From: an uncultured Chryseobacterium sp.
GTDB taxonomy: Bacteria > Bacteroidota > Bacteroidia > UBA10329
Assembly (NCBI GenBank): GCA_964457245.1
Contig: CAYWET010000009.1
Location: 25,284-89,283 of the forward strand
Direction of reading: 5' to 3'
Length of the DNA: 64,000 nt
Shown here: piece after piece, positions 16,604 to 62,520 of the stretch
Layout of the letters: each line of letters starts with the position of its first letter
Position numbering within the stretch: position 1 is the first letter of the stretch
The notes under the pieces: generated by a model
What the model saw: the letters and a program-made list of their open reading frames with translations, nothing else
What the model was told of the DNA's origin: nothing
The model's database searches: none
Translations under genes and position numbers: made by a program

Positions 16604-17629
16604 ATGAACCAGAATCTGGATCCAACTTCTGAAGGACAACTTCCAATAGACAGAGAAACCGAACGTGCACTACGCCCTGTCGGTTTTGATGAATTCAGTG
16701 GGCAAGACAAAGTGGTGGAAAACCTGAAGGTGTTTGTTCAGGCTGCGCAACAGCGGGATGAGGCGTTGGACCATGTTCTGCTTCACGGTCCTCCTGGATT
16801 GGGCAAAACCACCTTGGCGAACATTATTGCCAACGACCTAGGCGTGAGCCTTAAACTCACATCAGGTCCTGTTTTGGATAAGCCAGGAGACCTTGCTGGT
16901 TTGCTTACCAACCTTGAACCGAACGATGTTCTTTTCATCGATGAGATACATCGGCTTTCCCCTGTGGTTGAAGAGTATCTCTACTCGGCAATGGAAGATT
17001 ATCGGATTGATATAATGATCGAGACGGGGCCGAATGCGAGGTCGGTTCAGATCAATCTCAATCCGTTCACATTGGTTGGGGCCACAACCCGTTCAGGTTT
17101 GCTGACCGCGCCACTTCGTGCGCGTTTTGGAATTACTTCTCGCTTGCAGTATTACGATGCAAAGGTCCTATCTGGAATTGTGAAACGTTCTGCAAGTATT
17201 CTTGAAGTTCCGATTGAAGAAAGTGCTGCTGTTGAAATTGCCCGAAGAAGCCGTGGTACGCCACGTATCACCAATGCTTTGCTCAGAAGGGTTAGAGATT
17301 TTGCGCAGATAAAAGGCGATGGGACAATCAACAAGGAGATTACTCAATTTGCGTTGGATGCTTTGAACGTTGACAAACATGGACTGGACGAAATGGACAA
17401 CCGAATCCTTCGAACTATAATCGAGAAATTCAAGGGAGGGCCAGTCGGTTTGACAACCGTTGCAACAGCAGTTGGTGAAGAAGCGGGAACCATTGAGGAA
17501 GTTTACGAGCCATTCCTCATTATGGAAGGATACATCTCAAGAACACCTCGAGGACGGCAAGCCACGGAACGAGCCTACGAGCATTTGGGAAAAATCAGTC
17601 CGGGCCGAGAAGGTACACTCTTCGAATAG
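16604..17629 (+). CDS. ruvB: Holliday junction branch migration ATPase RuvB
   Basis: 341 aa; AAA+ Walker [12 protein letters not shown], Walker [10 protein letters not shown], sensor motifs. Confidence 0.95.
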
Positions 17630-17636
17630 GGGTTTC

Positions 17637-17657
17637 GCGCGAAGACGCAAAGACGCC
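17637..17657. repeat. left arm of inverted repeat bounding the GxxExxY cassette (partner 18113-18133)
   Basis: gcgcgaagacgcaaagacgcc vs downstream ggcgtctttgcgtctttgcg-type complement (17/18 core match aagacgcaaagacgc). Confidence 0.6.
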
Positions 17658-17675
17658 AAGAGTTAAGTTTATGAA

Positions 17676-18053
17676 ATGAATGAGAACGATATAGCAAAGA
17701 TTGTGGTCGACACCTCACTTATGGTTCATCGTGAATCGGGTCCTGGACTTTTGGAAAGTGTTTACGAAGAAATCTTGGCTTACGAACTTGAAAACCGTGG
17801 TTTAACCGTTGAGCGGCAACGCGGCATTGAGGTTGAATGGGATGGACGAAATCTTGGAAAAGCATTTGTGGCAGACCTCGTCATTAACTCGTTGGTAATT
17901 ATCGAATTGAAGTCGGTGAAGAAGTTAGAGCCAGTTCATTTCAAACAACTATTGACCTATTTGAGATTAGCCGATATGAAGTTGGGTTTGCTGATCAACT
18001 TCAACGAAACACTCATCAAGGATGGAATCAAACGCGTTGTAAATGGTCTTTGA
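17676..18053 (+). CDS. GxxExxY family protein (23S rRNA intervening-sequence-type protein)
   Basis: 125 aa; G-L-L-E-S-V-Y-E-E motif (GxxExxY) near N-terminus, size and composition typical of the family; flanked by inverted repeats (see repeat feature). Confidence 0.8.
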   Translation: MNENDIAKIVVDTSLMVHRESGPGLLESVYEEILAYELENRGLTVERQRGIEVEWDGRNLGKAFVADLVINSLVIIELKSVKKLEPVHFKQLLTYLRLADMKLGLLINFNETLIKDGIKRVVNGL

Positions 18054-18112
18054 ATCTCTTTTCAAGTCTCTGTGCCCTAGCCAGATTTTCTTCAAAGCAT
18101 CCGTCAATTCCT

Positions 18113-18133
18113 TTGCGTCTTTGCGTCTTTGCG
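18113..18133. repeat. right arm of inverted repeat bounding the GxxExxY cassette
   Basis: ttgcgtctttgcgtctttgcg is the reverse complement of the upstream arm; contains direct tctttgcg x2. Confidence 0.6.
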
Positions 18134-19052
18134 AGAAATGAAAAACGAAGCCCTCATAAAACAAGAAGCCAAGCGATTGGGGTTTCTACAATGCGGTATC
18201 TCCAAAGCTGATTTTCTTGCGGAGGAAGCCCCGCGCCTCGAACGTTGGCTCAACGCCAATATGCATGGCGAAATGGGCTATATGGCCAACCATTTTGATA
18301 AACGATTGGACCCACGGAAGTTGGTTAATGGTGCCAAATCGGTTATCACGGTTCTGCTGAATTACTACCCTTCAGAAACGCAAAAAGACCCAGAAGCCCC
18401 AAAGATTTCCAAGTATGCTTACGGCAACGATTACCATCATGTGATCAAAGGAAAGCTGCGTGAGCTGGTCAATTACATCAACGAGGAAATCGGTGAAGTA
18501 GGAGGCAGGGCGTTTGTAGATAGCGCGCCTGTTATGGACAAAGCTTGGGCAGCCAAAGCAGGTCTGGGTTGGATAGGAAAGAACACCAATCTCATCAACT
18601 CAAAAACGGGTTCGTTCTTCTTTATTGGAGAATTGATTCTCGATATTGAATTGGAACCCGATGGCCCAACTACTGACCATTGCGGCACCTGCACGGCTTG
18701 CATTGATGCTTGTCCCACAGAAGCGATTGTTGAACCGTACGTGGTAGACGGTTCTAAGTGTATTTCCTATTTCACCATTGAGTTGAAAGATGCCATTCCA
18801 ACCAATATGAAAGGCAAATTCGACAACTGGGCTTTTGGTTGCGATGTGTGTCAGGATGTTTGCCCGTGGAATCGTTTCTCAAAACCACATTCGGAACCGC
18901 AGTTCAATCCGCATCCAGAAATGCTGGAAATGACCAAACATGATTGGGAAGAACTGACTGAAGACGTCTTCAAAAAAGTGTTTCAGAAATCGGCTGTAAA
19001 ACGCACTAAGTACAGCGGGCTGAAGCGAAATATTGCTTTTTTCAATCGGTAA
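18129..19052 (+). CDS. queG: epoxyqueuosine reductase
   Basis: 307 aa; two 4Fe-4S ferredoxin motifs ([24 protein letters not shown]), HEAT-like C-terminus; real start may be ATG at 18138. Confidence 0.9.
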
Positions 19053-42319: not shown

Positions 42320-43729
42320 ATGAAATCGCTTATCTCCTTCGTTGCGGCTTTGCTGCTTACTGGTGTTTCTTTTCAGTCCTTTGCTCAAGGATGTTCTCCT
42401 AACCCTGTTTTTGCCAACTCAGGTGTTGGTGTTTACCCGTCTGGTATTCAGATGGATTGCAGTGGCACCAACGCCAGTGCAACCGTTATCGGGTTGACGG
42501 ATACCACGCTGGGTGGTCTTTCTACTGCCTATTTTGATGCCATGCGCGTTCTTGCTGTAGAGGGGCTTCCTGCTGGGCTTGTTGTAGAAACAGATGTGAT
42601 GAACAGTGCCACCGCAGGTTCTCCGTTTGGAGTGTGGGCTTACTCTGGTTCGCAACCCGTGTTCGACCCTTCTGTTGGATGTCTGAATATTTCCGGTACG
42701 GCTGTTGATTGGGCCGCGGCAGCTATCGGAGGTCCAAACAACGATGGTGTATTCCCATTGAAGATTATAGCAGATTATCGGATTGCATACACCGATCCCG
42801 ACATGACCCCGCTTGGGGTGACTAATGGAGAATGGCTTGTCAATACGGCTTTGTCGATTCCAGCTGACACGATTCAGGCCCACCTTTACGTAAACCAATC
42901 TTCTTGCGGGGCTACGCTTTTTGTTTCCACTCAGGTTACGGCCAATACCGATACAACGCAAGGTTGTGACGGTTCGGCAACGGTTGAGGTCTATAACGGC
43001 CAGCCGCCTTACACTTACTCATTCTCTAATGGAGTGGTAACTCCAACTGCTTCAGGACTTTGTCCGGGAACGTACACGGTAGATGTGGTAGATGCCAACG
43101 GAGAAGTGGGTACAGCGGCTTTTGCGGTGGGAGTTGCTTCTAATGTTTACTCCAATGTGAATCCGATTGGATTTCCTCCTGGATTGGACTCGATATTTGG
43201 TTCTTATCAAACCTGTGACCTAGACTATTCTCTTCCAATTGACTCGTTTATGGTCACCCAAGCTTTTACCGGTGGAACAGACACGCTACTTGTGGAGTGG
43301 GTTGTTTATCAGCTTGGTCAGCCATACACGCTTCTAAGCTTTTATCCTGCATTGGGGAATAATCAGGCAGTTGTATCGCTTACATTGTTCTGCGAGAATG
43401 GACGTTCGGAAGCAGGTGTTTTCCAGCTATACGATTACGTAGACCTAGATGCAACGGGTGTTGAGGAGCAAGCGCAGCAGTTGCAGTTCTCGGTTATGCC
43501 GAACCCAACAAGTGGTTTGCCTACGTTGCAATTAGATGCATTGGTGCAACAAGCTCGGGTTGATGTGTTCGACCCTACTGGTAAGCGGGTGCTATCACAG
43601 AACCTATCAGTAGCTGGGAACAATCAAATTGACCTTCAGCACCTCGCAGATGGGTTGTACACGCTTCGGGTTTCTACCCAGCATGGTTTTGGTGTGAAGC
43701 GGATTGTGAAAGCGGGTGGTGTGAGGTAG
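42320..43729 (+). CDS. T9SS sorting-domain cargo protein (paralogue A)
   Basis: 469 aa; signal peptide, C-terminal ...NPTSGLPTLQLDA...DGLYTLRVSTQHGFGVKRIVKA CTD. Confidence 0.85.
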   Translation: MKSLISFVAALLLTGVSFQSFAQGCSPNPVFANSGVGVYPSGIQMDCSGTNASATVIGLTDTTLGGLSTAYFDAMRVLAVEGLPAGLVVETDVMNSATAGSPFGVWAYSGSQPVFDPSVGCLNISGTAVDWAAAAIGGPNNDGVFPLKIIADYRIAYTDPDMTPLGVTNGEWLVNTALSIPADTIQAHLYVNQSSCGATLFVSTQVTANTDTTQGCDGSATVEVYNGQPPYTYSFSNGVVTPTASGLCPGTYTVDVVDANGEVGTAAFAVGVASNVYSNVNPIGFPPGLDSIFGSYQTCDLDYSLPIDSFMVTQAFTGGTDTLLVEWVVYQLGQPYTLLSFYPALGNNQAVVSLTLFCENGRSEAGVFQLYDYVDLDATGVEEQAQQLQFSVMPNPTSGLPTLQLDALVQQARVDVFDPTGKRVLSQNLSVAGNNQIDLQHLADGLYTLRVSTQHGFGVKRIVKAGGVR

Positions 43730-43778
43730 ATTATGTTCCATCCGGCCATTTTCCGACCTTGCGACAAATTCAACCCGT

Positions 43779-45209
43779 ATGATATACCTACTGCGTCTTA
43801 GTTGTGCCATTGCTATTCTATTTGTTTCGGCAAGTGCATTCGGTCAGTGTAACCCCGATCCCGCCTTTGCCTCATCGCCATTCGGTATTTATCCGGTAGG
43901 GCCAATGCAGATGGATTGCAGCGGAACCAACTCCAACGTAACTGTTGTTGGCCTTTCAGATACAATTATCGAAATTATACCCAACGGATCAAGCGCAACC
44001 GTGTATTTTGATGCCACCCGTGTTGATACGGTCATCGGGTTGCCCACAGGGCTTTCTGTTGAAACAGATGTAATGGACAGTGCCAATGCGGAGTCGCCTT
44101 ACGGCTTTTGGACCTACACTGGGGTCAACCCGAATTTTACACCAAGCATAGGATGTATGAATATCACGGGTTCAGCATCTGCTTGGAATACTGCTGCAAC
44201 AGGAGGTCCGAACAACGATGGAGAGTACCCGCTTACCATTACTATAGATAGAAGGGTTGCGTATTCAAATCCGGACATTGCGTTTATTGTTCCGAATGGT
44301 TCTTGGGTTTCGGTTACTGGCAATGCAGAGCTTAGCGCTGATACCGTAGAGGTGTTGCTTCGGGTAAATGAATCCGCATGTTCTGGAGACCTGTCTTTGG
44401 TCCCTGCGGTTACCGCAAGTGCTGATACCTCACAGGGCTGCACTGGGTCTGTAACGGTTGACGTGTATTACGGTCAACCACCATACACGTACCTGTTCTC
44501 TAATGGGACATCGGGCTCTTCTAGTGTTACAGGTCTTTGCCCGGGAGTTTATTCGGTACAGGTATCAGATGCCAATGGCGCATCAGGATATGCCGAGTTT
44601 GCAATAGGCATGGAGGCCAATGTTTATACGAATGTTCCTCCTGGTCCAGTTCCACTAGGAACGGACTCACTGTTCTTCACTTCAGGTAATTGCGATCTGG
44701 ACTATAACCTGCCAGTGGATTCGTTTTCGGTTGTTGATGCATTTGCCTTTGGTAATGATACAATTGCCGCCACATGGGTTATTTATCAGCTGGGTAACCC
44801 TTATACCGTGGTTTCATTTTATCCAGATGGGAACCCCCAGCCAACTGTATTGTCGTTAGTGGTTTTTTGTGAGAATGGCCGCGCTGCAACAGGTGTCTTT
44901 CAATTATTTGAATACGTTGACCTCTCTGTTGTAACAGGAATAAGCGATAACGTACATTCGATTGACTTCTCTGTTGTGCCGAACCCGTCCAATGGTCTAT
45001 TCCGCTTGGTTCTCGATAATAATGCTGGCTTAAATTCGGTCGATGTGTTTGACCCAACAGGCAAGTTAGTGCTAACGCAGAACCTGTCGATAGCTGGGAA
45101 CAATCAAATTGACCTTCAGCATCTCGCAGATGGCTTGTACACGCTTCGGGTTTCTTCCCAGAATGGTTTTGGCGTAAAGCGGATTGTGAAAGCTGGTGGG
45201 TTGAGGTAG
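43779..45209 (+). CDS. T9SS sorting-domain cargo protein (paralogue B)
   Basis: 476 aa; ~55-60% identical to paralogue A throughout, last ~120 nt nearly identical at DNA level. Confidence 0.85.
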   Translation: MIYLLRLSCAIAILFVSASAFGQCNPDPAFASSPFGIYPVGPMQMDCSGTNSNVTVVGLSDTIIEIIPNGSSATVYFDATRVDTVIGLPTGLSVETDVMDSANAESPYGFWTYTGVNPNFTPSIGCMNITGSASAWNTAATGGPNNDGEYPLTITIDRRVAYSNPDIAFIVPNGSWVSVTGNAELSADTVEVLLRVNESACSGDLSLVPAVTASADTSQGCTGSVTVDVYYGQPPYTYLFSNGTSGSSSVTGLCPGVYSVQVSDANGASGYAEFAIGMEANVYTNVPPGPVPLGTDSLFFTSGNCDLDYNLPVDSFSVVDAFAFGNDTIAATWVIYQLGNPYTVVSFYPDGNPQPTVLSLVVFCENGRAATGVFQLFEYVDLSVVTGISDNVHSIDFSVVPNPSNGLFRLVLDNNAGLNSVDVFDPTGKLVLTQNLSIAGNNQIDLQHLADGLYTLRVSSQNGFGVKRIVKAGGLR

Positions 45210-57518: not shown

Positions 57519-58244
57519 ATGGGATTGCAGAATAAACATCATTTAGCCACAGATGCACAGATTTGCACAGATGGTTTCACAGAGAATAGAATGAATATTC
57601 GCATTTCTACGTTTCTCCTAACTCCTAGCTTCTGGTTCCTTTTCTCGTTTTTCCTTTTTTCCTCTTTCATCTCGTCAGCTCAGCCAAGAGAGAATGAGAA
57701 GGTGAAATTCCTAGCGAAGATTGAGACGCGCAATTCATTTGTGCAGACGCACCATGCAACGTTTCTTGGTGTTCGAGCGGGTTTTGAATTCAAGTTTCCT
57801 ATTAGATGCGGTATCGGTTACTATTGGATGCTCACAAACTTTAATTCCAACTTCTATAAGCCATCTGATCATGGTCAGGCCGACCCAACAGCACAGCCCA
57901 AACTTCGATATGCAATTGGCTACATAGATTACAGTTTCTACGAAGAAGACGATTGGACGCTTTCTGTTCCTGTTCAGATAGGGGTAGGAGAGACGTTTTA
58001 TCGTACCGAAGAGGCCAATAAATTTGCTAATGGTCTTGTGGTGCCCATGGAGGCTGGAATTGCCGTAGAGTACCTGTTTACGCGTTGGGTTGGCTTTGGT
58101 GTTGGTCTCGGTTACCGTGTAATGCTCAAAGGCAATAAACAGGTAAAAGAGAACTTCAATTCACCGTATTACCAGATTCGATTGAATATTCTGTTTACCG
58201 AGATATTTAGAGGACTTAAGAAAAAGAAGAAAGATCAATCGTAA
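57519..58244 (+). CDS. hypothetical secreted protein, probable start at Met 57591
   Basis: 241 aa as listed; hydrophobic signal after [31 protein letters not shown]; possible small OM barrel. Confidence 0.5.
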
Positions 58245-60922
58245 TTCAGATTCGGGCTTAACCAACGTTCAACGTCCTTAACTTCCATTCCTTTCCGTTT
58301 CGCATAATTCTCCACTTGGTCTTTTTCAATTTTGCCGAGACCGAAATACTTGCTTTCTGGATGCCCGAAGTACCAACCGCTCACAGATGCTGCTGGCATC
58401 ATGGCCAAACTGTCGGTAAGGCTCATTCCTGTAATTGAAGAAGCATTAAGCAACTTGAATAATTCAGGTTTTTCGGTATGGTCTGGACAGGCTGGATAAC
58501 CAGGCGCAGGACGAATACCACGATACTTTTCACGTATCAACTCCTCGTTGGAAAGAGCCTCTGAAGGCTCGTAACCCCACGTTTCCTTTCTCATAATCTC
58601 ATGAAGCTTTTCTGCAAACGCTTCAGCCAAACGATCGGCCAATGCTTTAAGCATGATGGATTGGTAATCATCATGGTCGGCTTCAAACTCCGCCAATTTC
58701 GTTTCAATACCAAGACCAGTAGTTACTGCAAATCCACCCATGTAATCCTTCAAACCGGTTTCCTTTGGAGCGACAAAATCAGCCAAAGCTATGTTTGGAA
58801 CACCATCAGCTTTTTTGGTCTGTTGTCTAAGCGAATGGACTACTGAAAGAGTCTCAGATCTACTTTCATCTGAGTAAAGTTCAACATCATCACCAATTGC
58901 ATTAGCAGGCCAAATACCAACCACGCCACTTGCTTGTAGCCACTTTTCAGAAACGATTTTCTGAAGCATGGATTGAGCGTCATTGAACAGTTTGGTAGCT
59001 TCTGTTCCTACAACCTCATCTTCCAGAATTTTCGGATAACGGCCAGCTAATTCCCATGTTTGGAAGAAAGGAGTCCAGTCGATGTAGTCAACCAGTTCGG
59101 ATAGTGGAAAATCTTTGAATTCAGTCAGCCCAAGTTTATTCGGTTTAGCGATGTCTTCCACTTTCCAATCAATTTGGAATTTGTTAGCTCTTGCTTCATC
59201 CAACGAAACGAACTGCTTTACACCCCGCTTCTTGGCGTGCATTTCACGCAGCTTTTCATACTCCTCTTGGATGCCATCCACAAAGGTTTCCTTCTTCTGT
59301 CCAAGAAGACTTTCAACTACCGTAACCGATCGCGAAGCATCGAGAACATGCACTGTTTGACCTTTCGTGTACCGCTGATCAATCTTCACAGCTGTGTGAA
59401 CTCTAGAAGTTGTTGCTCCTCCTATCAATAGCGGAATCTCAAACCCATCGTGCTCCATTTCCTTTGCCAAATGAACCATCTCATCAAGCGATGGTGTGAT
59501 CAGTCCACTCAAGCCAATGACATCCACCTTTTGTGCTTTGGCTTCCGCGAGGATTTTCTCCGCAGGAACCATCACACCAAGGTCAATGATCTCGTAATTG
59601 TTGCAGGCCAATACCACGCCTACAATGTTCTTTCCGATGTCGTGAACATCGCCTTTTACGGTGGCAAGCAATACTTTACCCGCTTTGCTTGAAGCACCAT
59701 CAGCTTCTTCTTCCATATACGGAAGAAGGTATGCCACGGCCTTTTTCATAACGCGCGCACTCTTAACCACCTGTGGCAGGAACATTTTTCCTTCTCCAAA
59801 CAGGTCTCCCACTACGTTCATGCCGTCCATCAACGGACCTTCAATCACATGCAACGGACGCTCCGCTTTCAGACGCGCTTCTTCTACGTCTTCTTCTACA
59901 TAATCTGCAATTCCTTTTACCAAGGCATGCGAAAGGCGCTCTTCAACAGGTGCTTCGCGCCAAGTGAGGTCCTCTTTCTTCTCCTTGGCCTTGCCAACCA
60001 CGGTTTCCGCAAATGACAAAAGCCTTTCGGTAGCATCTTCTCGCCTGTTCAATAGAACATCTTCAACATGTTCGAGAAGGTCCTTCGGAATCTCATCATA
60101 AACCTCCAACATGGTGGGGTTCACGATTCCCATGTCCATTCCATTTTTGATTCCGTGATATAGGAATGCCGAATGCATCGCTTCGCGTACAGGATTGTTT
60201 CCTCGGAACGAGAATGAGACGTTACTCACACCACCGCTGACCTTGGCTCCAGGCAGATTCTCCTTGATCCATTTGGTGGCATTGAAAAAGTCGAGCGCGT
60301 TATTGTTGTGCTCTTCCATTCCCGTTGCCACAGGAAAGATATTCGGGTCGAAAATGATGTCTTGAGGCGGGAATCCAACCTTATTGACCAAGACATCATA
60401 AGAGCGTTTACAGATTTCAATTCTTCGGTCGTAGCTATCTGCTTGGCCTTGCTCGTCAAACGCCATGACAACGGTTGCGGCACCATAACGCTTTATCTTT
60501 TTCGCATGGTCAATGAACTCGGCTTCGCCTTCTTTCAGGCTGATTGAATTGACCACACATTTTCCTTGGACACATTGCAAACCCGCTTCAATGATTTCCC
60601 ATTTGGAGCTATCAATCATGATTGGAATTCGGGCAATGTCTGGCTCAGCCGCCAATAGATTGAGGTATTTGACCATGGCTTCTTTACCATCGATCATACC
60701 CTCATCCATGTTTATATCAAGCACCTGCGCACCACCTTCTACTTGGTCGCGCGCCACCGATAATGCTTCATCAAACTGCTCTTCTTTGATCAGTCGAAGG
60801 AACTTCCGCGAACCCGTTACGTTGGTTCGTTCTCCAACATTTATAAAGTTGGAGCCTTCGTAAATGAGTAATGGCTCAAGGCCTGAGAGTTGTAAAGGGG
60901 GTATGGATAAGATTTCAGACAT
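58235..60922 (-). CDS. metH: methionine synthase, pterin-binding + cobalamin-binding + AdoMet-activation modules (C-terminal 3/4 of MetH)
   Basis: 895 aa; starts with pterin-binding module, B12-binding DxHxxG-type region ([11 protein letters not shown]), activation domain. Confidence 0.9.
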
Positions 60923-60943
60923 GAGATTTCAGATGTCAGAATT
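60923..60943. repeat. inverted-repeat arm flanking four-helix-bundle cassette (partner 61308-61328)
   Basis: tgagatttcagatgtcagaat vs reverse complement of cttctgatttctgaaatctcg = cgagatttcagaaatcagaag (19/21). Confidence 0.55.
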
Positions 60944-61298
60944 AGTTGTTTTTCAATGTTCTGCGGAATCCGAAAATCATCTTTTCGAGTTCAGACAAAC
61001 GTGTTAATAATGGATTGACCTTGTCTTTATGGGTGTAATTCAGTTCAACTGCAATCAATAGCTGAGTCCTTACTTCAAACGAAGAACCCGAAGCGATGCT
61101 CAGAAACTGCGCAAACTCCTTGTCAGAGTATCTGCCTGCACCTTCGGCAATGTTGCTGGCAATGGAAACCGCTGCCCTTCTGATTTGAGCTGTCAATCCG
61201 AATTTTTCATCAGAAGGGAAATCATTGGTCAGAACGTAAATCTCTTTCGCAACTTCCATTGCCAATTGCCAAACCTTAAGCTGTTCCAAATTGTGCAT
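60942..61298 (-). CDS. four-helix-bundle protein (23S rRNA intervening-sequence-type family)
   Basis: 118 aa; MHNLEQLKVWQLAMEVAKEIY...IASNIAEG...FEVRTQLLIA typical of the family; ATG immediately follows TAA of upstream metH fragment. Confidence 0.8.
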   Translation of the reverse strand: MHNLEQLKVWQLAMEVAKEIYVLTNDFPSDEKFGLTAQIRRAAVSIASNIAEGAGRYSDKEFAQFLSIASGSSFEVRTQLLIAVELNYTHKDKVNPLLTRLSELEKMIFGFRRTLKNN

Positions 61299-62342
61299 TT
61301 ACAGAGCTTCTGATTTCTGAAATCTCGTGTCTGATATCTGCCTAGGCGCATAGCGCGAGGCAACTTCCGCAATTGCCTTGATGTGCGGTGGAGTTGTGCC
61401 ACAACAACCACCGATGATATTGATGAGATTCTCCTTCAAGAAATCCTCAATCTGCGCGGCCATCATTTCGGGGGTTTCGTCATATTCTCCGAATTCGTTT
61501 GGCAAACCAGCATTCGGATGGGCGCTTACGTTGTATTGAGATTTTCCTGCCAAAACTTGAAGGTGTGGCCGCAGCTGCGAAGCTCCCAACGCACAATTAA
61601 AGCCGACACTCAGTAATGGAATGTGAGAAACCGAGATTAAAAACGCTTCAGCGGTCTGGCCTGAGAGCGTTCTTCCGCTGGCATCGGTAATAGTGCCTGA
61701 AACCATGATCGGTAATCGATACCCGATTTCTTCGTACAATTCTTCAATAGCAAACAAGGCAGCTTTCGCGTTGAGCGTGTCAAATACGGTTTCAACCAAA
61801 AGAATGTCTGCCCCACCATCAACCAATGCCTTTGCTTGCTCCTTGTAAGCAATCCTCAGATCATCGAAAGTCACAGCACGAAAACCAGGGTCGTTTACAT
61901 CTGGAGAAAGCGATGCAGTTCTGTTTGTCGGACCCATTGAACCCGCTACAAAACGTGGTTTGTGTGGTTCTTTGGCGGTCATTTCATCGGCAACTTCGCG
62001 CGCAATCTTGGCCGATTCATAATTGATGTCGTAAACCGCATCTTCCAAACCGTAATCTGCTTGTGCAATGGTCGTTCCGCTGAACGTATTTGTTTCGGCA
62101 ATGTCCGCGCCTGCTTCGTAATACTGACGATGGATGTCTTTGATAATCTCAGGGCGCGTGATGGAGAGCAGATCGTTGTTTCCTTTCAACGGTTTTTCTG
62201 CATCCATGAATCGTTCGCCACGATAATCTTCCTCTTCCAACTTATGGCGCTGGATCATGGTTCCCATGGCGCCATCCAGAATGAGAATGCGTTCTTTGAT
62301 AGCCGCTTCGAGTAGTTCTGTTCTATTGCTCATTTGTCGCAA
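61299..62342 (-). CDS. metH: methionine synthase homocysteine-binding module (N-terminal 1/4 of MetH as separate ORF)
   Basis: 347 aa; Hcy S-methyltransferase domain ([21 protein letters not shown] zinc-binding). Confidence 0.9.
61308..61328. repeat. inverted-repeat arm flanking four-helix-bundle cassette (inside 3' end of metH Hcy-module ORF)
   Basis: see partner at 60923-60943. Confidence 0.55.
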
Positions 62343-62404: not shown

Positions 62405-62520
62405 TCAACTTATCTTTTCCCGATTACTATCGGAATAGGATTTGGCACCTTTCCCGATAGCTATCGGGAGGTTGCCAAGACTTCGTAGGGCCTTTTCCCT
62501 CCGTCTTTCTTGATAAGCAA
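62405..62520 (-). promoter_or_regulatory. SAM-I (S-box) riboswitch in metH leader
   Basis: Minus-strand RNA reads cttATCAAGAaaGacGGAGGGAaaaGGCCCtacGAAgtcttGGCAACC...GGTGCCAAATCC...AAGATAAG, matching conserved S-box core elements. Confidence 0.7.

Follow-up and report, generated by a model that had tools for sequence, protein, structure and literature searches.

Intervening sequences (IVSs) in the 23S rRNA of Leptospira and Coxiella burnetii can carry an open reading frame (ORF) of the S23p (PF05635) family; they lie in helix 9, 25 or 45 and are excised by RNase III. PF05635 is homologous to Avd, a protein of diversity-generating retroelements. In a 64,000-nt stretch of an uncultured Chryseobacterium sp. 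genome (assembly GCA_964457245.1, contig CAYWET010000009.1, positions 25,284 to 89,283; this whole stretch is called the window below), we identified a cassette of comparable design between ruvB and queG. It comprises a gene for a 125-aa GxxExxY protein bounded by two inverted repeats, which we refer to as arms. A second cassette, encoding a PF05635 protein, lies between metH-N and metH-C.

In the Coxiella IVS, RNase III cuts at the first of three tandem GACAGAT heptamers, which lie upstream of the S23p ORF; this ORF is reportedly in decay and probably not translated (PMC4990558). The ruvB-queG cassette, known here from sequence alone, resembles ORF-carrying IVSs in its size class (0.4-0.5 kb), its one small ORF, its terminal inverted repeats that could pair into a long stem, its sense orientation within the presumed host transcript and its lack of a promoter of its own. 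Short tandem repeats in the arms are a further likeness, as the Coxiella heptamers mark the RNase III site (PMC4990558), and the metH cassette has both a PF05635 protein and a unit, NTCAGAN, close to that of Coxiella. However, the host site at ruvB-queG is a junction of protein-coding genes and not a 23S rRNA helix, the arm units are octamers, and the ORF belongs to an unrelated PD-(D/E)xK family, PF13366. This ORF is strongly selected, whereas that of Coxiella is reportedly decaying (PMC4990558).

We favor, at somewhat less than even odds (roughly 0.45), an IVS-like cassette that would be transcribed together with ruvB and queG, looped out by pairing of its arms and cut at an RNase III-type site. 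On this reading it is apparently an element of the IVS type that lies outside rRNA and bears another gene family, and the widespread class of repeat-bounded cassettes to which it belongs is apparently undescribed. The literature on GxxExxY, as far as our partial coverage reached, holds passing mentions only, and within the same coverage we found no paper tying PF05635 or GxxExxY genes to tandem-repeat arms or to insertion at operon junctions; an earlier description may exist.

The GxxExxY cassette in the ruvB-queG junction

The whole unit measures 505 bp (17633-18138). It and its host genes are arranged as follows.

16604 to 17629, plus strand: ruvB, upstream host gene (NF000868, E 9e-153; TIGR00635; Pfam RuvB_N, AAA_lid_4 and RuvB_C)
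17633 to 17660, unstranded: left (5') arm, TTTCG-CGCGAAGA-CGCAAAGA-CGCCAAG (inverted-repeat scan)
17676 to 18053, plus strand: GxxExxY ORF, 125 aa (PF13366 PDDEXK_3, TIGR04256)
18054 to 18110, plus strand: non-coding stretch of 57 nt from the GxxExxY stop to the right arm (alignments with relatives)
18111 to 18138, unstranded: right (3') arm, CTTTGCG-TCTTTGCG-TCTTTGCG-AGAAA (inverted-repeat scan)
18138 to 19052, plus strand: queG, downstream host gene (TIGR00276, E 1e-109; QueG_DUF1730, Fer4_16)

Matches to PF13366, TIGR04256, NF000868 and TIGR00276 confirm what the sequence-only reading of this DNA had proposed, namely a 125-aa GxxExxY gene between ruvB and queG. Between the ruvB stop codon (TAG, 17627-17629) and the left arm there are 3 nt, and between the left arm and the GxxExxY ATG 15 nt. 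Each arm measures 28 nt; the two are 89% complementary and lie 450 nt apart. A near-perfect repeat had been placed at 17637-17657 and 18113-18133; the repeat is real, but it is longer (17633-17660 and 18111-18138). Its right arm does overlap the queG start, as had been claimed, since the final arm base (18138) is the A of the ATG. In the left arm, three tandem octamers (CGCGAAGA-CGCAAAGA-CGCCAAGA) come after an outer terminus, TTTC(N)CGC, and the right arm, as read from the sequence, carries their complement. The octamer consensus is CGCNAAGR, with three tandem copies per arm. Between the GxxExxY stop and the right arm, the stretch 18054-18110 is poorly conserved, and alignments revealed that most of it is deleted in the relatives L005, L006 and L196.

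The 15-mer AAGACGCAAAGACGC has two sites in the window, both in the arms and one per strand. By chance 0.14 matches are expected, and at least two occurred in 3 of 100 shuffles. Further arm copies, which the sequence-only reading had thought worth seeking, did not turn up elsewhere in the 64 kb by this 15-mer search. Folding 17620-18150, a check of the kind that the sequence-only reading had asked for, gives a predicted minimum free energy (MFE) structure in which the arms are paired with each other (z = -2.2). A sigma-70-type promoter scan of 17300-18400, which does not model Bacteroidota promoters, found nothing past a lone weak match inside ruvB. No terminator-like site was detected in the same interval, and the right arm has no T-run. 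PDDEXK_3 is the only domain found in the cassette; there was no transposase or recombinase domain and no match to Y1_Tnp. Searching the cassette against Rfam gave no match at the gathering or E-value threshold, and by Rfam the window holds no rRNA, its single match being a riboswitch near metH. The cassette is solitary, between housekeeping genes.

The GxxExxY protein matches TIGR04256 over residues 6-122 (138.3 bits against a cut-off of 35, E 1.4e-40) and PF13366 PDDEXK_3 (135.4 bits against a cut-off of 22, E 1.5e-39). Residues G24-x-x-E27-x-x-Y30, D67 and E77-x-K79 are invariant in an alignment of 22 GxxExxY sequences. Its AlphaFold2 model has a pLDDT of 94. The nearest folds in the PDB are lambda exonuclease, Cas4 SSO0001 and splicing endonuclease, all with weak scores (E 2e-3 or worse), and the structural neighbors of the model are limited to generic PD-(D/E)xK nucleases; no solved structure was found among the sequence homologues. 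The model and the alignment indicate a minimal PD-(D/E)xK nuclease fold with an intact catalytic signature, and the protein is a predicted enzyme. It had been assigned to the 23S-rRNA-IVS-type family, which proved incorrect. That family is the four-helix-bundle PF05635/TIGR02436 (S23p), from which GxxExxY/PF13366 is distinct by sequence, and no similarity is detectable between the two cassette proteins of the window.

Relatives were found via the GxxExxY protein; their RuvB is 91-98% identical, every one of them has the cassette at the same site, and their outer genes differ. A GTDB scan with RuvB reached at best 78% identity, so the nearest empty ruvB-queG sites are distant. At that distance ruvB and queG are commonly neighbors; about 20 Bacteroidota loci have ruvB followed by queG after 8-60 nt, and the spacers lack the arm motif. 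As such spacers are too short to hold the arms and are without the motif, the gene and arms are one inserted unit and not ordinary spacer, and by this comparison the unit is absent from the ancestral junction. The earlier proposal of an inserted element therefore withstood a comparison of related loci for an insertion or deletion. Elsewhere in Bacteroidota, the same junction took up unrelated genes (L019, L021, L025, L030, L042, L049, L054, L062 and L068), including a cytochrome P450 in several Flavobacteriaceae and a response regulator; a PIN/antitoxin-like pair and an NAD(P)H-oxidoreductase-like gene were judged by ORF only, with no domain search. Insertions seem to recur at this junction.

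When the window is compared with L005 or L006, synonymous sites prove to be saturated (proportion of synonymous differences, pS, 0.72-0.74), which indicates that the insertion is old. On sequence grounds the cassette at ruvB-queG is ancient and vertically inherited, and not a recent arrival. The ratio of nonsynonymous to synonymous substitution (dN/dS) of the GxxExxY ORF is 0.04-0.06 among the ruvB-queG orthologues. Arm sequence diverges much less than synonymous sites do (p-distance 0.11-0.21 versus synonymous differences of 0.3-0.8), and relative to L005 and L006 the arms differ at 16-21% of positions. ORF and arms are thus both under purifying selection at this site. In L196, a 1-nt deletion cuts the ORF after about codon 97 and both arms are intact (L196:2990-3480); this truncated variant was found in 11 contigs. 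Compared with L004, pS is 0.30 in the cassette gene versus 0.71 in ruvB, and 17804-18100 (the 3' two-thirds of the cassette gene) has 93-94% nucleotide identity versus 79-86% for ruvB and queG. There may have been a recombination tract centered on the cassette.

One alternative is that the inverted repeat arose by chance, or that it belongs to an ordinary ruvB-queG spacer as terminator-like sequence and has nothing to do with the gene. Genes are often followed by short, GC-rich inverted repeats, and covariation between the arms is not significant in five orthologues. However, these are 28-nt arms 450 nt apart, with neither a T-run nor a terminator-like site, the motif is expected 0.14 times by chance, cassette-free spacers lack the arms, and most GxxExxY family members in unrelated genomes have them too (see below). 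We give this alternative almost no weight; the empty spacers and the family-wide arms exclude it.

Arms around GxxExxY and PF05635 genes in other contexts

A metagenome scan with the GxxExxY alignment recovered 80 loci at 52-67% protein identity, from which 70 non-redundant genes were tested. At nearly all loci the arms read TC(T/A)CGCAAAG-(N)CGCAAAG-(N)CGCAAAG upstream, with the reverse complement downstream. The elements have a defined outer terminus, TTC(T/A)CGC, which is conserved. Complementarity of the upstream and downstream flanks exceeded the 99th percentile of shuffled flanks for 53 of the 70 genes (~75%), and 43 of the 70 had at least two sense CRCNRRG units upstream plus at least two antisense units downstream. 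Runs of the arm motif numbered 194 in 196 kb of GxxExxY loci versus 21 in 526 kb of control loci. Although the motif is common to all, cognate arms pair better than arms of differing elements (Mann-Whitney p = 8e-13), and in 13 of the 70 elements the cognate arm is the best match.

Neighboring genes are mostly co-directional with GxxExxY (upstream 51/57, downstream 45/53), and the gaps to them are typically 30-70 nt, about one arm's length. Arm-flanked GxxExxY genes are present in named genomes too: the gene lies in the fabD-fabG junction in Sphingomonas, follows radA in Bacteroides finegoldii and ade in Bernardetia (with arm units drifted to CACAGAG) and, in Ignavibacterium, is placed between HAL (a histidine/phenylalanine ammonia-lyase-family gene) and rmuC. 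No extra arm copies were found in the 20 kb around the Ignavibacterium gene.

Tandem GxxExxY cassettes with arm-spacer-arm junctions occur in L107, L097, L117 and L125. Near GxxExxY genes in several metagenomic contigs we also identified ORF-less hairpins with CGCAAAG-type arms and loops of 10-110 nt, some of them in tandem arrays:

L135, 105 to 250: ORF-less hairpin region
L142, 2025 to 2185: ORF-less hairpin region
L121, 2355 to 2460: ORF-less hairpin region
L108, 825 to 935: ORF-less hairpin region
L117, 1 to 800: ORF-less hairpin region
L167, 1895 to 2086: ORF-less hairpin region
L099, 420 to 565: ORF-less hairpin region

Copies of the GxxExxY cassette with 79-86% nucleotide identity occupy unrelated contexts. 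No target-site duplication was evident in 38 cassettes, where the longest boundary direct repeat averaged 1.84 nt versus 1.81 nt for non-cognate pairs. Scanned viral contigs contained one weak GxxExxY locus and zero four-helix-bundle loci, so by this measure neither family is phage-borne. The sequence-only reading had suggested a mobile or selfish element. In support are the single inserted unit, the ORF-less hairpins and the unrelated contexts, but old vertical inheritance and the lack of target-site duplications do not fit. In the past, members of the class moved from site to site and from host to host; the one at ruvB-queG is now a stably inherited resident.

The second cassette of the window (60910-61339, minus strand) was detected by a whole-window scan for long-range inverted repeats. 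Its features are:

61299 to 62342, minus strand: metH-N, homocysteine-binding domain, ~340 aa (PRK09490 positions 4-341)
61308 to 61339, minus strand: 5' arm with heptamer units NTCAGAN (inverted-repeat scan; kept in relatives)
60942 to 61298, minus strand: 118-aa four-helix-bundle ORF (PF05635, E 3e-41; TIGR02436, E 5e-39)
60910 to 60941, minus strand: 3' arm, holding the metH-C ATG at 60922-60920 (inverted-repeat scan; empty-site comparison)
58235 to 60922, minus strand: metH-C, ~890 aa (PRK09490 positions 344-1232)

Its arms are 32 nt long and 88% complementary. The 5' arm falls within the last 14 codons of metH-N, and the ATG of the 118-aa ORF follows the metH-N stop immediately (TAAATG). 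In the PDB this ORF matches 2gsc (XCC0516, E 2e-23). The cassette is kept in relatives with a four-helix-bundle protein 69-92% identical, whereas in the close relatives L178 and L180 the junction is empty and 1 nt separates the stop from the start. Relative to that empty site, the cassette substitutes for ~34 nt without any duplication, and its arms encode a new C-terminal tail and stop for MetH-N and a new start for MetH-C. The empty L178 is the closest relative of the window (MetH-C 96% identical) and is nested among filled genomes. By these sequences, the presence of the cassette is patchy and does not follow the phylogeny of its flanks. We rejected the idea that the cassette split metH, as the best MetH-N homologues are stand-alone in 120 of 120 cases (316-374 aa) and cassette-free relatives also have two ORFs. 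The split predates the cassette, with two genes throughout the clade whether or not it is present. Upstream of metH-N is an S-adenosylmethionine (SAM) riboswitch (RF00162, 90 bits, 62407-62519, minus strand).

PF05635 genes on eight plasmids (L181-L188) from Nostoc, Calothrix, Pseudanabaena, Stanieria, Geminocystis, Picosynechococcus and Riemerella also lie in operon junctions, including cmr2-cmr3, cas6-cas4, nrdB-nrdA and that of hlyD with an ABC transporter gene. Clear inverted heptamer arrays surround the gene on five of the eight. Nostoc PCC 7120 has an array on the downstream side only, and no convincing arm pair was found for the Calothrix gene. The heptamer differs per element (TAGGGAG, CAGAGGG, GGTTCAA, AAGGGAA or AGGAGAT), which implies that both arms of a PF05635 element change together. 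These plasmid arrays resemble the classical short tandemly repeated repetitive (STRR) sequences of cyanobacteria. Given the common layout of arms and ORF, including the tandem heptamers of Coxiella, ORF-carrying rRNA IVSs and operon-junction cassettes have one design in common. That a stem-bounded gene is not an rRNA-specific feature, as the sequence-only reading had held, is borne out by its recurrence at most GxxExxY genes and around PF05635 genes in protein-coding contexts.

Tandem short units of conserved sequence, in arms that are under purifying selection in place together with the protein, could instead be operators in DNA or RNA. The cassette protein would then bind the units and regulate its own gene or tune the downstream host gene, and the complementarity of the arms would be a by-product. 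In both window cassettes the right (3') arm covers the downstream start codon, and the intact arms beside the frameshifted ORF of L196 fit arms that matter to the host operon. However, independent arrays would not predict that cognate arms match best, variable unit positions included, and ORF-less hairpins exist. Moreover, as the PF05635 unit differs from element to element, the specificity of the protein would have had to switch repeatedly. We consider operators improbable.

Proposed RNA- and DNA-level roles of the arms

Sense orientation, the lack of a promoter or terminator, arms placed at the stop and start codons, a possible duplex of 22-30 bp and the IVS-like architecture are, in combination, best explained by a role at the RNA level. 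In detail, the cassette, having no promoter or terminator of its own, would be transcribed within the ruvB-queG message. Its arms would then pair in the transcript into a duplex of ~28 bp (22-30 bp across the design), looping the cassette out and bringing the ruvB stop beside the queG start. The duplex would be a processing site of the RNase III type, as in ORF-carrying 23S rRNA IVSs. A foreign gene could in this way live in an operon junction or at an rRNA helix tip, with no need for re-ligation and with host expression unbroken; an insert that is looped out and cut should be tolerated wherever continuity of the RNA is unneeded. The sequences show the anatomy, the insertion, the arms across the family, the co-orientation with close packing, and the purifying selection; co-transcription, the RNA duplex, cleavage by RNase III and any role of the nuclease are what we infer.

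Several observations weigh against this interpretation. Across the five orthologues 91% of arm positions are able to pair in all, but there are just two compensatory stem pairs, not above shuffles. Mismatches in 39 cassettes comprise 35 of the G·U type and 34 of the A·C type, so there is no visible selection on a sense-RNA stem, which should favor G·U. The octamer core CGCAAAG, drifting to CGCAGAG or CACAGAG, is kept across phyla at 45-67% protein identity; RNase III does not require this sequence, which argues for sequence-specific recognition or for concerted evolution of the arms. A role at the RNA level also leaves a strongly conserved nuclease without a function. Lastly, some flanking repeats are not inverted. 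Distant GxxExxY genes (36-40% identity) on plasmids of Fusobacteria (L192) and Prevotella nigrescens (L193) have direct flanking repeats of ~50 nt, and the arrays at the Pseudanabaena PF05635 gene (L184), (AAAGCTA)n and (AAAGCCA)n, are direct as well.

A second possibility is that the arms act as DNA and an RNA duplex is incidental. They would be terminal inverted repeats offering multiple 8-bp sites to the cassette nuclease, or to a recombinase acting in trans, for excision and integration, homing into empty junctions or maintenance. The symmetry of G·U and A·C mismatches and the conservation of the GxxExxY unit across phyla fit this, as does the defined and conserved outer terminus TTC(T/A)CGC. 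The ORF-less mini-hairpins and tandem hairpin arrays recall MITEs (miniature inverted-repeat transposable elements) or REPINs, and copies at 79-86% identity in unrelated contexts point the same way. The catalytic residues of GxxExxY are intact and its dN/dS is very low. Further support comes from the patchy metH cassette, with the empty L178 nested among filled genomes, and from a pS relative to L004 that is lower in the cassette (0.30) than in ruvB (0.71). However, there are no target-site duplications, no cassette-borne transposase or recombinase domain, and no additional arms in the 64 kb of the window or in the 20 kb of Ignavibacterium. Four-helix-bundle cassettes of the same design encode no nuclease. 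Co-orientation with flanking genes is not predicted, unless the cassette gene needs read-through expression, and the ruvB-queG cassette has been inherited vertically for long. We regard action as DNA as a serious contender, though one that probably does not hold, and retain the looped-out, IVS-like cassette as our preferred interpretation.

Relation to other repeat-bounded elements

Genes for REP-associated tyrosine transposases (RAYTs; REP, repetitive extragenic palindromic) are flanked by inverted REP sequences (PMC3116915). The likeness lies in a single gene between two inverted short repeats, in the ORF-less hairpin doublets of other genomes and in long vertical inheritance of the gene under purifying selection. 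RAYTs, however, are Y1 HUH transposases (IS200/IS605-like), whereas the cassette encodes a 125-aa PD-(D/E)xK protein. Its arms are tandem arrays of 7-9-mers and not a REP palindrome, they are not dispersed in the window, and cassettes sit within operon junctions, co-oriented with the host genes.

With MITEs and small insertion sequences the cassettes share terminal inverted repeats whose outer terminus is conserved, gene-less miniatures and copies in unrelated contexts. They differ in having no target-site duplication and no recognizable transposase, and the sole close empty site (metH) indicates that ~34 nt of target were replaced. Integron attC cassettes and pdif modules (with XerC/D sites) are likewise promoter-less single-gene units with imperfect inverted-repeat bounds, some of them in tandem. 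In our cassettes, by contrast, the repeat is split to both sides of the gene and does not form one 3' attC; no integrase, attI or Xer-type core was identified, although no whole-window integrase search was made; and, unlike in integrons, they are scattered in housekeeping operons and not collected in one array.

Homing endonucleases, inteins and group I introns also place a nuclease-type ORF at conserved housekeeping sites, and the metH polymorphism that departs from the flank phylogeny and the ORF decay in one lineage (L196) are reminiscent of them. Yet the cassettes lie between genes and not within coding sequence, there is no splicing, homing elements are not characterized by inverted-repeat arms, and the endonuclease activity of GxxExxY is a prediction.

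Tandem heptamers, often in convergent inverted pairs between co-oriented genes, are known as the STRR sequences of cyanobacteria and the GGGAATC pairs of Xanthomonas (PMC4692102). Heptamer arrays likewise flank PF05635 genes on the cyanobacterial plasmids that we examined. The repeat pairs of Xanthomonas and Nostoc have, however, been described solely as stand-alone simple-sequence or G-quadruplex motifs (PMC4692102), and within our partial coverage of the literature we found nothing linking STRR or other heptamer repeats to PF05635 or GxxExxY genes.

It is a real possibility that the ruvB-queG cassette marks a broader unrecognized class. In its widest form, which we put forward as speculation that may well fail, the class would be large and would comprise PF05635 or GxxExxY cassettes bounded by inverted tandem arrays of 7-9 nt, with the 23S rRNA IVSs as its best-known corner. 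The cassettes, selfish or domesticated, would settle where the RNA need not be continuous, at rRNA helix tips and at junctions within conserved operons, and host RNase III would take the place of splicing. The STRR sequences and Xanthomonas pairs would be their arms or relics that have lost the gene, and the nuclease would drive gain or retention by homing or addiction.

PF13366 and PF05635 are two very large protein families, and both usually travel as the same repeat-bounded, promoter-less cassette, wedged in tight housekeeping junctions such as ruvB-queG, metH-N-metH-C, fabD-fabG, cmr2-cmr3 and nrdB-nrdA. This framework is testable through rnc-dependent processing, binding of the protein to the arms and homing. 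It offers a possible account of the enigmatic tandem heptamer repeats and bears on the origin of 23S rRNA IVSs, a question since about 1990. The cassettes also carry a warning, in that inserts can alter essential genes around their start and stop; in the window, the arms provide the C-terminal tail of MetH-N together with the MetH-C and QueG start codons.

The window has further long-range inverted repeats, 43576/44221 and 29096/29596 among them, which are not cassettes. The first falls within two paralogous surface-protein genes. These are tandem paralogues (42320-45209) encoding secreted proteins of ~470 aa with near-identical C-terminal tails, and they are unrelated to the cassettes.

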